From Escherichia phage dhaeg, in sequence record MN850609.1: a stretch of 64,000 bases of DNA, one strand, 5' to 3'. The position numbers and the translations under genes are program-made. Every line of letters begins with the position of its first letter. The first letter of the stretch is position 1. The notes beneath the pieces were generated by a model that was not told the DNA's origin, ran no database searches, and saw only the letters and a program-made list of their open reading frames with translations. Shown one piece after another: positions 31,600-33,061 of this stretch.

Positions 31600-31884
31600 A
31601 TGTTATACGTTAAGGTTACTAATCCAGAGAATGGCTATAAATCCGATCAGGTTGCAGCCGAGTTGTTGATTCGAAATTACGGCAAAGATGCCGTGCTTGA
31701 TGTTCAACAGGTTAATATTGGCCGTAGTTCAAGCGATGTTAAACTCAAAGTTAACAGCCATCGCTATAATTCTGTTAACTTTACTTTTTATACCGCAACT
31801 GAAAATGGATTGGTCGAATACGACATCTTTAAAAACCCTTTGAAGATTGCTTCTATTAAACTTGACTATATTAATATGCTTTAA
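31600..31884 (+). CDS. hypothetical protein
   Basis: 94 aa ORF starting at the stop of the preceding gene. Confidence 0.5.
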   Translation: MLYVKVTNPENGYKSDQVAAELLIRNYGKDAVLDVQQVNIGRSSSDVKLKVNSHRYNSVNFTFYTATENGLVEYDIFKNPLKIASIKLDYINML

Positions 31885-31969
31885 GAATTATGTGATATTA
31901 TTACTCTATCATTAATACCCTCTATTACCAAAGGTTCTTCCCTCAAAGAGCCTTTCATAATAGAATTAA

Positions 31970-32043
31970 GGCCCTGTAGCTGGACGGTCAAGCGAGCGAC
32001 TCATAATCGCTGGATGGTGGTTCGATTCCACCCAGGGCCACCA
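31970..32043 (+). tRNA. tRNA with CAU anticodon (Met or lysidine-type Ile)
   Basis: Hand-folded cloverleaf: acceptor GGCCCUG/CAGGGCC, anticodon stem AGCGA/UCGCU with loop CUCAUAA, T-arm GGUGG-UUCGAUU-CCACC, encoded CCA. Confidence 0.75.
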
Positions 32044-32047
32044 ATTT

Positions 32048-32122
32048 GGATGTGTAGCTCAGTGGTAGAGCAGTTGACTGTTAATCAATTGGTCCATGGT
32101 TCGAATCCATGCATGTCCGCCA
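32048..32122 (+). tRNA. tRNA-Asn (GUU)
   Basis: Acceptor GGAUGUG/CAUGUCC (two G-U pairs), D-arm GCUC-AGUGGUA-GAGC, anticodon loop CUGUUAA, T-arm CAUGG-UUCGAAU-CCAUG, encoded CCA. Confidence 0.75.
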
Positions 32123-32126
32123 AATA

Positions 32127-32202
32127 CGAGGCATAGCTCAGAAGGAAGAGCAAGGACCTTCTAAGTCCTGGGTCGTAGGTTCGATCCCTACTGTCTCGAC
32201 CA
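32127..32202 (+). tRNA. tRNA-Arg (UCU)
   Basis: Acceptor CGAGGCA/UGUCUCG, D-arm GCUC-AGAAGGAA-GAGC, anticodon stem AGGAC/GUCCU with loop CUUCUAA, T-arm GUAGG-UUCGAUC-CCUAC, encoded CCA. Confidence 0.8.
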
Positions 32203-32372
32203 AACAAGAAACCGGGTCGCTACCGGTAAGTCGTCGGACTGAAGTTCCCTGAATAAGACCCGACTTTAAGGCGTACATGAGTTCCTCTTAAAGTCCCTTA
32301 TCTCACAGCTGAAACGGCGCACCGAACACTTGCCTAGCAGGTGGAACCCCGACAAGGTTACCCTAGGTTAAA
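32203..32372 (+). ncRNA. structured non-coding RNA region downstream of tRNA-Arg (candidate small stable RNA)
   Basis: About 170 nt without a convincing ORF between the last tRNA and a terminator; stems such as CGGGUC...GACCCG; T4 has small stable RNAs in this position. Confidence 0.35.
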
Positions 32373-32400
32373 GGCCCTTCCGAAAGGTTGGGCCTTTTTT
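32373..32400 (+). terminator. rho-independent terminator ending the tRNA/RNA transcription unit
   Basis: GGCCCuuCC-GAAA-GGuuGGGCC followed by TTTTTT. Confidence 0.6.
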
Positions 32401-32401
32401 G

Positions 32402-32409
32402 TATAAATA
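32402..32409 (+). promoter_or_regulatory. late promoter (TATAAATA)
   Basis: Exact TATAAATA 28 nt upstream of the ATG at 32438. Confidence 0.6.
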
Positions 32410-32437: not shown

Positions 32438-33061
32438 ATGAAAACTTACAATGAATTTTTGAACGAAAGCGTTCTGACTGAAGCCAGCGTGCGCATGACT
32501 AAAGATATGTGGCAAGCTGCTTATGATAAAATTTCCGGGACTAAAACCACTACCGAGTTCTTTAAAAACGTTTATGATATGTATGGTTTTGATACTAGTA
32601 ACCAGAAAGAATATTACAAAGCTTCCAAAGCTTTTAAAGATATCGTAGCCGGTGGCGCTACTAAACCTGCTAAACCAGCTAAAGCTCCTGTTGCTAAACC
32701 TGCAGCCCCAACCAAAGTTGCACCACCTAAACCTGCGGCAGCACCTAAAGCAGAGCCTGTAAAAGAAGCTCCTAAACCTAAAATCAAGTTCGACACCAGC
32801 ACTATTGTTAAAAAATATAACCAACTGGCTTCTTTGGTTTCTGAAATAGAATCCGAAACTAAACACCTTGTTCGTGAATTCAATGTTCTTCGTAACGGTC
32901 AACACATTAACAACCTGGACACACCAGACCTTTATCGTCTCTATCTGACGGTTGAAGGCCTTAAGTACACCCAGCCTATGCGCGAAGAAATTGACAACAA
33001 ACTTCGTCAAGCACGCCGACTGGCCGGTGACGCAGCTCAGTTCGAAAAGACTCGTAAATAA
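32438..33061 (+). CDS. internal-protein-like protein with capsid-targeting-sequence-like N-terminus and Pro/Ala/Lys-rich linker
   Basis: 207 aa; N-terminus MKTYNEFLNES...LTEA; low-complexity KPAKPAKAPVAKPAAPTKVAPPKPAAAPKAEP linker; late promoter upstream. Confidence 0.6.
   Translation: MKTYNEFLNESVLTEASVRMTKDMWQAAYDKISGTKTTTEFFKNVYDMYGFDTSNQKEYYKASKAFKDIVAGGATKPAKPAKAPVAKPAAPTKVAPPKPAAAPKAEPVKEAPKPKIKFDTSTIVKKYNQLASLVSEIESETKHLVREFNVLRNGQHINNLDTPDLYRLYLTVEGLKYTQPMREEIDNKLRQARRLAGDAAQFEKTRK

Follow-up and report, generated by a model that had tools for sequence, protein, structure and literature searches.

A short tRNA cluster in Escherichia phage dhaeg (MN850609.1) raises two questions: why does the phage keep just three tRNAs there, and what is the RNA that lies between the last of them and the terminator? 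The 64-kb stretch of this genome that was analysed is called the window below. With a probability of about 0.8, the region is the Dhakavirus (JS98-like) form of the T-even tRNA operon, with the order CAU (Ile2 type)-GUU (Asn)-UCU (Arg)-rnaD-trailer-terminator. It is an already-known kind of locus and ordinary in type.

The tRNAs were searched with ARAGORN and with Rfam, where the gathering score of the tRNA family RF00005 is 29 bits. Exactly three were found in the window, in the order CAU, GUU and UCU and all above this threshold:

31970..32043, + strand: tRNA with anticodon CAU, tRNA-Ile2 type (ARAGORN; Rfam 62.6 bits)
32048..32122, + strand: tRNA-Asn (GUU) (ARAGORN; Rfam 72.6 bits)
32127..32202, + strand: tRNA-Arg (UCU), which reads AGA (ARAGORN; Rfam 63.8 bits)

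They are separated by the 4-nt spacers ATTT (32044-32047) and AATA (32123-32126), and CCA is encoded at the 3' end of each. An earlier inspection of the letters alone (the sequence-only reading) had described this set of three with its anticodons, spacers and CCA ends; both programs agreed, and the cloverleaves that had been folded by hand were upheld by ARAGORN in all three cases. The window agreed at 100% identity with Escherichia phage dhabil (Dhakavirus), whose record already annotates the three tRNAs, and JS98 and JS10 have 3 tRNA genes each on record (PMC2993671). Only five loci, all near-identical, came up when relatives of the upstream protein were scanned for.

The identity of the CAU tRNA was examined in an alignment with ileX, metT and metZ of E. 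coli. The acceptor stem GGCCC.. contains the pairs C4:G69 and C5:G68 as in ileX, with which the anticodon stem-loop GCGACUCAUAAUCGC also agrees in full. E. coli metT differs, with U4:A69 and A5:U68, and initiator features were absent from the CAU tRNA in this alignment. The base pairs 4:69 and 5:68 are the major identity elements of the E. coli TilS enzyme (PMC11947777). Among the matches listed, the best full-length E. coli matches were annotated as tRNA-Ile, and so is the T4 counterpart. By its sequence the CAU tRNA belongs to the tRNA-Ile2 type and not to tRNA-Met; it should carry lysidine and read AUA. Of the two identities first proposed, Met or lysidine-Ile, only the second was borne out by the acceptor pairs and the ileX-identical stem-loop.

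The anticodon loop CUGUUAA and the discriminator G73 of the tRNA-Asn are those of E. coli asnU, and the loop CUUCUAA of the tRNA-Arg equals that of argU. The 3' part of the tRNA-Asn (32098-32123) matches the consensus GGTTCRANTCC...CCAR of the homing endonuclease SegB (PMC2330249). A tRNA-Asn gene occurs in T2L, RB1 and RB3 and is the preferred homing site of SegB, and in T4 its position is occupied by segB (PMC2330249). Compared with the RB27 tRNAs, identity was 92% for CAU, 82% for Asn and 98.7% for Arg.

When the clusters of related phages were aligned, T4 showed the order Gln-Leu-Gly-Pro-Ser-Thr-Ile-(segB)-Arg-rnaD-rnaC. In RB27 the cluster is unchanged except that CAU-Tyr-Asn-Arg stands where T4 has Ile-(segB)-Arg, again with rnaD-rnaC at the end. 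Related loci carry 11 tRNAs at most and 2 at fewest, and CAU and UCU are both kept in every locus whose fetched stretch covers the cluster. By sequence, the three-tRNA set is a nested, same-order subset of the T-even cluster, as seen against RB27 and others, which contradicts the first impression of a lineage-specific set. What the sequence-only reading said of T4 was correct: its annotation shows eight tRNAs and two small stable RNAs here, and T4 indeed has no tRNA-Asn.

The cluster is framed by the following transcription and processing signals:

31874..31901, + strand: predicted MotA-type middle promoter (ATATGCTTTA, 12 bp, then TGa-TATTAT)
31921..31964, + strand: 5' leader hairpin just before the first tRNA (fold and conservation)
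32324..32369, + strand: conserved 3' trailer with the hairpins T1 (32327-32343) and T2 (32345-32359) (alignment and fold, 11 phages)
32370..32400, + strand: intrinsic terminator GGCCC-UU-CC-GAAA-GG-UU-GGGCC, then U6 (fold)
32402..32409, + strand: T4-type late promoter motif TATAAATA (exact match), serving the next gene (32438-33061)

In MotA promoters a good -10 element follows the box (a/t)(a/t)(a/t)TGCTTtA at a distance of 12+/-1 bp (PMC2988021). The putative promoter of the window has this arrangement, with TATTAT preceded by TGn at the 12-bp distance. The pattern TGCTTYA-N11-13-TANNNT occurred at 8 sites in the window against 1.75 expected, 31874..31901 among them. The stretch is homologous to the one upstream of tRNA-Gln in T4, where the middle promoter PtRNA starts at 72593 (PMC2988021, Table 1), and homology would place the dhaeg start near 31908. 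The segment 31908-31969 folded at -17.6 kcal/mol (z = -6.7), which was reached by 0 of 200 shuffles. The leader hairpin module is kept in T4, RB27, VR5, UPEC01 and others, and we infer that it is a processing site.

At the distal end, the terminator announced by the sequence-only reading was found as a G+C-rich hairpin with U6 (-17.4 kcal/mol, z = -3.85), conserved with a compensatory C-G to G-C change. A simple terminator scan did not list the hairpin at 32370-32400, which may be because of the UU/UU internal loop in its stem. The trailer hairpin T1 alone gave -8.7 kcal/mol (z = -2.95) and has one compensatory change, G-C to A-U in p000v. The trailer module also occurs in Gaprivervirus, apart from rnaD. 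In T4 and RB27 the homologous module follows rnaC, a tRNA-like RNA of about 139 nt in the relatives that is unlike rnaD. The window has no rnaC: the alignment shows a clean gap, about 146 nt long, where it would lie between rnaD and the trailer, and two 26-30-nt rnaC probes with up to 3 mismatches had no match in the 64-kb window. The T4 tRNA transcript is presumed to end after the species I RNA gene (PMC2330249). The late promoter motif TATAAATA is found at the equivalent place in RB27 and others. It was assigned with the T4 late-promoter consensus, and it lies outside the tRNA unit and marks the unit's end.

By homology to T4, the operon would be expressed as a single transcript of about 490 nt from the MotA-dependent middle promoter. 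Host enzymes would cleave this transcript, with RNase P generating the 5' ends of the tRNAs, and the 4-nt spacers would be trimmed as far as the encoded CCA. The rnaD would be freed by endonuclease cuts and by 3' trimming to its helix P2. For dhaeg, the ends of the transcript, the lysidine modification and a stable rnaD are all expectations transferred by analogy from T4.

The RNA that follows the tRNA-Arg had been noted as a structured segment of about 170 nt whose function was left open. The segment was resolved into a homologue of T4 rnaD (the species 2 small stable RNA) and then the conserved trailer. The features of the homologue, which is not annotated in dhaeg, are:

32204..32323, + strand: rnaD homologue, with its 3' end set by homology to the T4 annotation
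32211-32227, + strand: helix P1, loop GUCGCUA
32230-32236 with 32315-32322, + strand: helix P2
32243-32246 with 32307-32310, + strand: helix P3
32250-32256 with 32298-32305, + strand: helix P4
32257-32297, + strand: variable apical hairpin

The stretch aligned with the annotated rnaD of RB27, RB9, RB59 and T4, where it is recorded as a small, stable RNA (NC_000866). Identity to the annotated copies in RB27, RB9, RB5 and RB68 was 77-82% over 98-100% of the query, and 734 phage records were found with rnaD. The CCA of the tRNA-Arg(UCU) ends at 32202 and rnaD begins at 32204, with the same position in T4 and RB27. Against RB27 and T4, nt 1-48 were 92-94% identical, nt 49-100 were 56-61% and nt 101-120 were 95% identical. 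The apical hairpin exists in at least four unalignable types that are shuffled between genera.

For the consensus helices P1-P4, 97.3% of the cells were paired, compared to 29-49% in slid controls, and compensatory changes were observed at 6 pairs within P1, P3 and P4. P2 and, save for its closing pair, P1 are invariant and give no covariation evidence either way. As a single sequence rnaD folded no better than shuffles (z = -0.68), and its structure is supported by comparison only. The segment, at 32203-32372, had rightly been called ORF-free, with no conserved ORF in it; its structure was confirmed by comparison and not in the single sequence. In conclusion, 32204..32323 is by sequence a homologue of T4 rnaD with a covariation-supported fold.

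The search of 32203-32400 against Rfam, at the gathering thresholds and at E <= 10, gave no family, the best score being 12.2 bits (E = 9.5) on the terminator, and T4's own rnaC and rnaD likewise matched no Rfam family. Two 15-mer scans of IMG/VR returned mostly chance matches on unrelated contigs. A degenerate tRNA was rejected: ARAGORN gave no call, the 7-nt 5' tail cannot pair into an acceptor stem with the 3' end, and P1, with its 5-bp stem and 7-nt loop, would have U at position 37 and leaves no room for a D-arm. A CCA-like 3' end is not conserved, with ...CACCA in T4 and ...CACAGA in JS98 and others. A K-turn or tandem G-A motif, looked for by hand in the P2/P3 internal loop, was discarded as well, since UPEC01 has Watson-Crick pairs in its place and the motif is not conserved.

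Why the tRNAs are kept was addressed by codon usage, counted per 1000 codons in the window and in a sample of only 40 E. coli K-12 CDS. AGA was the codon enriched most (7.0 in the window vs 1.0 in the 40 CDS), and AUA was fourth (12.0 vs 3.5). For AAU the values were 30.7 and 17.2, and the Asn codons were enriched only about 1.5-fold. The late-gene block (- strand, 61-26966) had 8.9 AGA, 14.6 AUA and 31.7 AAC per 1000. The host has several tRNA-Asn genes, three of which are annotated within one fetched E. coli stretch; together with the weak enrichment of the Asn codons this means that supplementation explains the tRNA-Asn poorly. Codon supplementation, one of two functions suggested at the outset, has thus found support for AGA and AUA, though only weak support for Asn. 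The phage tRNAs would boost the decoding of codons that are heavy in the AT-rich phage and served by scarce E. coli tRNAs. AGA would be read by Arg-UCU and AUA by the CAU tRNA once the host TilS has formed lysidine; the tRNA-Asn may help AAY to a lesser degree, and the benefit would fall chiefly on the late structural genes. Deletions of the entire T4 tRNA region are viable on laboratory hosts, and therefore any function should be conditional.

The other function suggested at the outset was the evasion of anticodon nucleases. Nothing in the three tRNAs favours it: the anticodon loops of the tRNA-Asn and tRNA-Arg are those of asnU and argU, and the CAU tRNA has the ileX stem-loop. A related reading holds that the tRNAs mainly replace host tRNAs destroyed during infection and do not serve codon matching. 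The destruction would be due to host defence nucleases (colicin D/E5-like, PrrC-like, PARIS, retron effectors or Schlafen-type) or to phage-induced decay. Colicin E5 targets the Asn tRNA and colicin D the Arg tRNA, which speaks for replacement, and the bodies of the phage tRNAs are strongly diverged from those of the host, which could impede recognition. In T4-infected cells host tRNAs become fewer (PMC9697503), infection can be rescued from PARIS and retron effectors by phage tRNAs (PMC11464382, PMC11555353), and the general hypothesis is laid out in PMC10264068. However, the changes in the anticodon loop that PMC10264068 proposes as a signature were not found in the three tRNAs, and, as supplementation predicts, the codons served by the two always-retained tRNAs are the two rarest in the host and at the same time belong to the most enriched ones in the phage. 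We consider replacement as the main role rather unlikely.

The conservation pattern of rnaD leads to our best guess, a tentative one: a stable RNA working in trans that a protein recognises, either as a decoy or as a scaffold. The recognised part would be the two invariant end modules, namely the P1 hairpin with the loop GUCGCUA and the helices P2-P3 with their internal loop. The apical hairpin may then be a freely exchangeable spacer. T4 RNAC and RNAD are classed as late RNAs by RNA-seq and called function-unknown, and the Northern probe that is reported corresponds to RNAC (PMC9697503, PMC3014915). In three of three phage lines evolved on the host ECOR34 one common SNP arose, which was placed in rnaD by the authors (PMC12685909). 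An antisense target of the conserved 48-nt 5' module of rnaD was searched at blastn sensitivity in 5,426 E. coli genomes and gave no match.

Alternatively, the segment behind the tRNA-Arg could be a mere 3' trailer or processing by-product that is stable through its structure and functionless itself. The single-sequence fold at shuffle level fits this explanation, as do the 50 years that have passed without a function being found (PMC3014915) and the loss of rnaC without replacement. It does not account for the ends of rnaD, which are 92-95% identical to RB27 and T4, whereas the adjacent coding gene trna.2 is only 62% identical to T4, nor for the compensatory changes in P1, P3 and P4. Moreover, rnaD is not confined to the tRNA-Arg: it persists in HY03, p000v and UPEC01, where this tRNA is not adjacent or no tRNA is near, and its presence in so many phage records also argues against a by-product, which we therefore regard as improbable.

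A more specific proposal is that rnaD mimics a type I CRISPR RNA, as an RNA anti-CRISPR or a crRNA-like decoy. It would be a trans-acting counter-defence RNA whose ends imitate a type I crRNA through a hairpin base GUUC(N)CUG...CAG-CU(N)GAAA. These ends might titrate Cas6 or subunits of Cascade, or else some other defence protein of the host that binds RNA, with the apical hairpin as a tolerated or specificity-tuning insert. The layout of rnaD consists of an 8-nt 5' tail ending in AGAAA, 32 nearly invariant nt and then GUUCCCUG...CACAG-CUGAAAC. For comparison, the E. coli type I-F repeat is GUUCACUG...GGCAG-CUUAGAAA, and it goes with a handle of 8 nt and spacers of 32 nt. Both repeats used here, I-F and I-E, were confirmed in E. 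coli genomes. A layout score combined the handle match with the match to the repeat start, for spacers of 30-34 nt. Among dinucleotide shuffles, 1 in 10,000 reached this score for I-F and 1 in 1,000 for I-F or I-E, but the test was post hoc. The layout is present in 21 of 21 homologues, and the hypervariable insert lies at the would-be repeat loop.

Solitary repeats (Racr) are recognised by at least 90% identity to and at least 90% coverage of a known CRISPR repeat with the stem-loop kept (PMC10651486). In rnaD there are only split motifs, with 7/8 of the repeat start and 5-6/8 of the handle; handle positions 1-3 vary, and the would-be repeat is interrupted by about 55 nt. No Rfam CRISPR-DR family matched, and the covariation-backed P1 and P3 occupy the end of the 'handle' and the 'GUU' of the would-be repeat. 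For the 32-nt segment, 0 exact protospacer-like matches were obtained in 185,579 species genomes and none in 5,426 E. coli genomes. A looser pattern gave 6 matches in unrelated bacteria, mostly high-G+C actinomycetes, which is at chance level. T4 is mentioned in neither of two RNA anti-CRISPR papers. RNA anti-CRISPRs (PMC10651486) and phage crRNA-like RNAs (bioRxiv 10.1101/2024.10.29.618823) are likewise small non-coding phage RNAs with a similar succession of handle, 32 nt and repeat-like part. In contrast to them, rnaD has no contiguous repeat or found target, and its covarying helices clash with a guide-like conformation. Such mimicry is very improbable; if it were true, the T4 species 2 RNA would gain a function and RNA anti-CRISPRs would extend to the T-even phages.

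That 32204-32400 codes for a small protein is hardly credible: many GenBank records place a 'hypothetical protein' CDS over the homologous stretch, but an ORF of at least 30 aa was absent from 32204-32400 on both strands of the window, the homologues measure 115, 117, 118, 121, 122 and 124 nt with indels that break any frame, and the substitutions follow the pattern of the paired helices.

In its outcome the locus is routine: GenBank already lists the tRNAs, and the downstream RNA is homologous to a T4 gene known since the 1970s. The analysis corrects the annotation of the CAU tRNA, which is Ile2 rather than the customary Met. It also shows that many of the 734 carrier genomes have an rnaD that is overlooked or hidden under a bogus CDS, and both rnaC and rnaD lack an Rfam family. 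The fold of rnaD is supported by covariation, with invariant ends that are more constrained than the neighbouring protein gene. The natural genotype with rnaD and without rnaC is a useful variant for a genetic attack on the function of the T4 stable RNAs.

Among the nearest relatives is the T4 operon (NC_000866 70908-72530; eight tRNAs, rnaD and rnaC), whose promoter, leader, trailer and terminator are homologous to those of the window. The distal order is shared, from the CAU tRNA to Arg-UCU and rnaD one nt past the CCA, and so are the flanks, with trna.2 upstream and e.8 and e.6 downstream. Unlike T4, the window has three tRNAs only, a tRNA-Asn at the place of segB and no rnaC; its tRNA-Arg is RB27-like and very unlike that of T4, and CCA is encoded in all three tRNAs. 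With RB27 (10 tRNAs, rnaD and rnaC annotated) the window shares the trailer, the late promoter and rnaD ends of 94-95% identity. It differs from RB27 in the absence of the Gln, Leu, Gly, Pro, Ser, Thr and Tyr tRNAs and of rnaC, and in an rnaD apical hairpin of another, unalignable type. The E. coli genes ileX and argU share their anticodon loops with the phage tRNAs, and ileX also has the C4:G69 and C5:G68 pairs and the whole anticodon stem-loop of the CAU tRNA. Outside these parts the tRNA bodies have diverged, and the dhaeg tRNAs are phage-encoded, clustered and predicted to be co-transcribed. JS98, JS10 and IME08 (Dhakavirus) have the three tRNAs and the rnaC-less junction of rnaD and trailer as in the window, and JS98-type genomes differ by having one more ORF, placed after the leader hairpin and before the first tRNA.

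The locus is a reduced Dhakavirus version of a well-known object, the T-even tRNA operon, and lacks rnaC, the gene of the T4 species 1 RNA. The window was 100% identical to Escherichia phage dhabil (MN850621.1, reverse strand), a JS98-like relative of T4 that is classed in the Straboviridae, Tevenvirinae, Dhakavirus and whose GenBank record already annotates the three tRNAs. The following features were found.

31874-31901, predicted middle promoter, MotA box and extended -10 element, ATATGCTTTA - 12 bp - TGaTATTAT, perfect to the consensus (PMC2988021)
31921-31964, leader hairpin (fold of the 62-nt leader -17.6 kcal/mol, z = -6.7)
31970-32043, tRNA with anticodon CAU (ARAGORN; Rfam tRNA model 62.6 bits)
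32048-32122, tRNA with anticodon GUU (ARAGORN; Rfam tRNA model 72.6 bits)
32127-32202, tRNA with anticodon UCU (ARAGORN; Rfam tRNA model 63.8 bits)
32327-32343, conserved trailer hairpin T1, with a compensatory change of G-C to A-U in p000v
32345-32359, conserved trailer hairpin T2
32370-32400, intrinsic terminator, hairpin and U6 (-17.4 kcal/mol, z = -3.85)
32402-32409, T4-type late promoter motif TATAAATA, directly after the terminator and belonging to the next gene

All three tRNAs, folded by hand in a sequence-only reading, were accepted by ARAGORN and by the Rfam model (threshold 29 bits), and ARAGORN found no further tRNA across the full 64 kb. The spacers are 4 nt each (ATTT, AATA), CCA is encoded at the 3' end of three of the three tRNAs, and tRNA-Arg is followed by about 170 nt without a conserved ORF and then by the hairpin with its U6 tail. 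That reading had described the tRNAs, anticodons, spacers, CCA ends, ORF-less stretch and terminator correctly in every detail, as judged by ARAGORN, Rfam, the sequence and the fold.

With blastn, 32203-32405 matched 745 phage records, and the matching stretch is annotated as rnaD followed by rnaC in RB27, RB68 and RB5. In a three-way alignment, 32204 to about 32323 was collinear with the rnaD of RB27 ("species II RNA"); a clean gap of about 146 nt was observed, corresponding to rnaC (139 nt) plus its spacer, and 32325-32400 was collinear with the post-rnaC sequence of RB27 and T4. The structured segment is therefore an rnaD homologue with a conserved trailer. Rfam, proposed as a check of this segment, returned no family for the window's copy nor for the rnaC and rnaD of T4 itself (Rfam 15 holds neither family), and the identity came from the homology instead.

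When rnaC probes were used, no match was found anywhere else in the window. The rnaC-less junction, ..GCGCACCGA joined to ACACTTGCC.., is common to JS98, VR5, EcoM005 and the fetched phage locus L115, and rnaC is retained in VR25 and a QL01-like Dhakavirus. What lies between rnaD and trailer (junction 32323/32325) varies: T4, RB27 and VR25 have rnaC there, the window, JS98 and VR5 pass straight from rnaD to the trailer, and Gaprivervirus (UPEC01, L010; compare L002 1622-1770 and L120 1310-1830) has an ORF, a late promoter and a pair of hairpin repeats. Part of rnaC (loci L040 980-1073 and L050 1410-1502) was called a 94-nt "tRNA-Stop (anticodon UUA)" by ARAGORN in one phage, and T4 rnaC reached 17.5 bits with the Rfam tRNA-Sec model, so that rnaC resembles a tRNA that has a long extra arm; rnaD had no tRNA likeness of this sort.

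On its own, rnaD matched 734 records, every one a T-even-type phage of enterobacteria. It is not coding, because its homologues (115-124 nt) differ in length by non-multiples of 3. In dhabil and most other genomes it is unannotated or overlain by a "hypothetical protein" CDS; among the matched public records, only T4 and a few RB phages have it annotated. A single-sequence fold of rnaD was no better than shuffles (z = -0.68), and a consensus fold was obtained from an alignment of 21 distinct homologues. It consists of a 7-nt 5' tail, the 5-bp hairpin P1 with the invariant loop GUCGCUA and a covarying closing pair (A-U 15, G-C 4, G-U 2), and a long irregular arm of P2 (7 bp, invariant), P3 (4 bp; U-A 13, A-U 7) and P4 (7 bp, compensatory changes in four pairs), then the apical hairpin. 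Two-sided changes were observed in six pairs, and 97.3% of the cells were paired, compared with 29-49% when the partners were slid by 1-3 columns.

Identity to RB27 and T4 was 92-94% at nt 1-48, 56-61% at nt 49-100 and 95% at nt 101-120; the neighbouring protein gene trna.2 has 62% DNA identity to T4. For the apical part (32257-32297) at least four types were distinguished, which cannot be aligned with one another and each fold as a hairpin (L002, L050, L115, L116, L120 and L122 compared). In Dhakavirus these are A (window), B (EcoM005) and C (L115), in Tequatrovirus B (RB27), C (HY03) and the type of T4 itself, and Gaprivervirus has C, which is found in both other genera. This mosaic spread has the appearance of cassettes exchanged on a constant scaffold, and not of drift. 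Moreover, rnaD is retained without an adjacent tRNA-Arg or without any nearby tRNA in HY03, p000v and UPEC01. The conserved ends, the supported and covarying fold, the apical exchange and the retention away from tRNAs argue against a processing leftover, and hence against the segment being simply the tRNA 3' trailer; they suggest sequence-specific recognition of both end modules. The literature still assigns no function to rnaD (PMC3014915, PMC9697503). In an evolution study of 2025, in which a T4-like phage was adapted to host ECOR34, 3/3 lines had one SNP in common, which the authors assigned to rnaD, with ambiguous orientation and numbering (PMC12685909).

The middle-promoter pattern was found at 8 sites in the window against 1.75 expected. 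The promoter region is homologous to T4 sequence with the mapped PtRNA (start 72593), which by homology would place the transcription start near 31908. The leader hairpin is kept in T4, RB27, VR5 and Gaprivervirus. The T4 tRNA precursor is processed by RNase III near its 5' end, and the hairpin may be that site. The tRNA unit would give one transcript of about 490 nt, from which RNase P, endonucleases and 3' exonucleases of the host would release three tRNAs, rnaD and the trailer. In T4, the primary transcript presumably spans the whole cluster and ends after the species I RNA gene (PMC2330249).

In Gaprivervirus the same trailer is placed 3' of the intervening ORF, which makes it a module in its own right; it persists when detached from rnaD. 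The first 34 nt or so of 32325-32400 are nearly invariant in Tequatrovirus, Mosigvirus, Dhakavirus and Gaprivervirus. In its build of hairpin, single strand and U-tailed terminator it resembles sRNAs of the Hfq type, and also the sponge RNA from a 3' external spacer of an E. coli tRNA transcript.

The tRNA set was compared with the clusters of T4 (Gln-Leu-Gly-Pro-Ser-Thr-Ile-[segB]-Arg-rnaD-rnaC) and RB27 (Gln-Leu-Gly-Pro-Ser-Thr-CAU-Tyr-Asn-Arg-rnaD-rnaC). Among 20 related loci the cluster size was 2 to 11 tRNAs, the 11-tRNA form with an added His, and CAU and UCU were both kept wherever the cluster falls within the fetched locus. The window combines these two tRNAs with Asn and keeps the ancestral order, a nested subset of the T-even cluster and not the lineage-specific set that had been proposed. 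Nor is tRNA-Asn new to T-even phages, since it is present in RB27 and in T2L, RB1 and RB3 (PMC2330249). SegB, a homing endonuclease of T4, cuts preferentially at tRNA-Asn, and its gene occupies that position in T4 (PMC2330249). The SegB consensus GGTTCRANTCC...CCAR (PMC2330249) was matched at 32098-32123, in the 3' part of the window's tRNA-Asn, and this tRNA region would be a likely homing target of segB if the phage and T4 infected one cell together.

The tRNA-Arg(UCU) at 32127-32202, set against L050 1674-1748, was 99% identical to that of RB27 and very different from that of T4 except in the anticodon loop and T-loop, which suggests gene replacement in one lineage, not inheritance with drift. 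In JS98-type genomes (IME281 and JS98, L117/L118; EcoM005, L116) the leader hairpin is separated from the CAU tRNA by an extra small JS98 gp137-like ORF, which the window, VR5 and VR25 lack.

In an alignment of the CAU tRNA with ileX, metT and the initiator metZ of E. coli, its acceptor stem was ileX-like (GGCCC.., C4:G69, C5:G68) and its anticodon stem-loop GCGACUCAUAAUCGC identical to ileX, whereas metT has U4:A69, A5:U68 and another anticodon stem. Initiator hallmarks were absent in this alignment. Pairs 4:69 and 5:68 are the major identity elements of E. coli TilS (PMC11947777). Among E. coli sequences, the best matches over the full length carry a tRNA-Ile annotation, and the T4 counterpart is annotated isoleucyl-tRNA. 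Of the two identities considered earlier, Met falls away and lysidine-Ile stands: the tRNA is of the Ile2 type, with a predicted lysidine.

Codon use was compared between 81 non-overlapping window ORFs (18,039 codons) and 40 annotated E. coli K-12 CDS (14,323 codons). Per 1000 codons, AGA was the most enriched (7.0 against 1.0) and AUA the fourth (12.0 against 3.5); AAU was at 30.7 against 17.2 and AAC at 25.5 against 21.4. The late structural block (- strand, 61-26966) was higher, with AGA 8.9, AUA 14.6 and AAC 31.7. These values agree well with codon supplementation, one of the two earlier explanations, in the case of Arg-UCU and Ile2, which no cluster has lost, and only moderately in the case of Asn. 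The other, evasion of anticodon nucleases, is a live hypothesis in the field (PMC10264068, PMC11464382, PMC11555353) but seems unlikely here, as its proposed signature was absent: the Asn and Arg anticodon loops do not differ from those of asnU and argU, nor does the Ile2 anticodon stem-loop from that of ileX.

A further candidate was a type I crRNA mimic. rnaD (32204-32323) can be read as 8 nt ending in AGAAA, 32 nearly invariant nt and GUUCCCUG ... CACAG-CUGAAAC, similar to the E. coli I-F repeat (GUUCACUG..GGCAG-CUUAGAAA, 8-nt handle, 32-nt spacers) and to the I-E repeat GAGUUCCCC.. (handle AUAAACCG against AGAAACCG in rnaD); both repeats were verified in E. coli genomes. The layout is present in 21/21 homologues, and its score was reached by 1/10,000 dinucleotide shuffles for I-F and 1/1,000 for either type in a post hoc test. 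All membership and target tests spoke against it. rnaD has no contiguous CRISPR repeat match and therefore fails the solitary-repeat criteria of the RNA anti-CRISPR paper, and neither of two papers on RNA anti-CRISPRs mentions T4; Rfam CRISPR families did not match the segment, and the nucleotides that would form the end of the handle and the start of the repeat are bound up in P1 and P3, helices backed by covariation. A search of 185,579 species genomes with the 32-nt segment gave 0 exact matches; leaving every sixth base free gave 6, at chance level and in unrelated bacteria, most of them high-G+C actinomycetes. Among 5,426 E. coli genomes it had no match. A crRNA-like nature of rnaD is thus very improbable.

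In conclusion, the locus is a known kind of object, with sequence and tRNA annotation already public, and JS98 and JS10 likewise have three tRNA genes each (PMC2993671). What the window contributes to the T-even system is a natural rnaC-null background, a supported rnaD fold and a clear conservation map.
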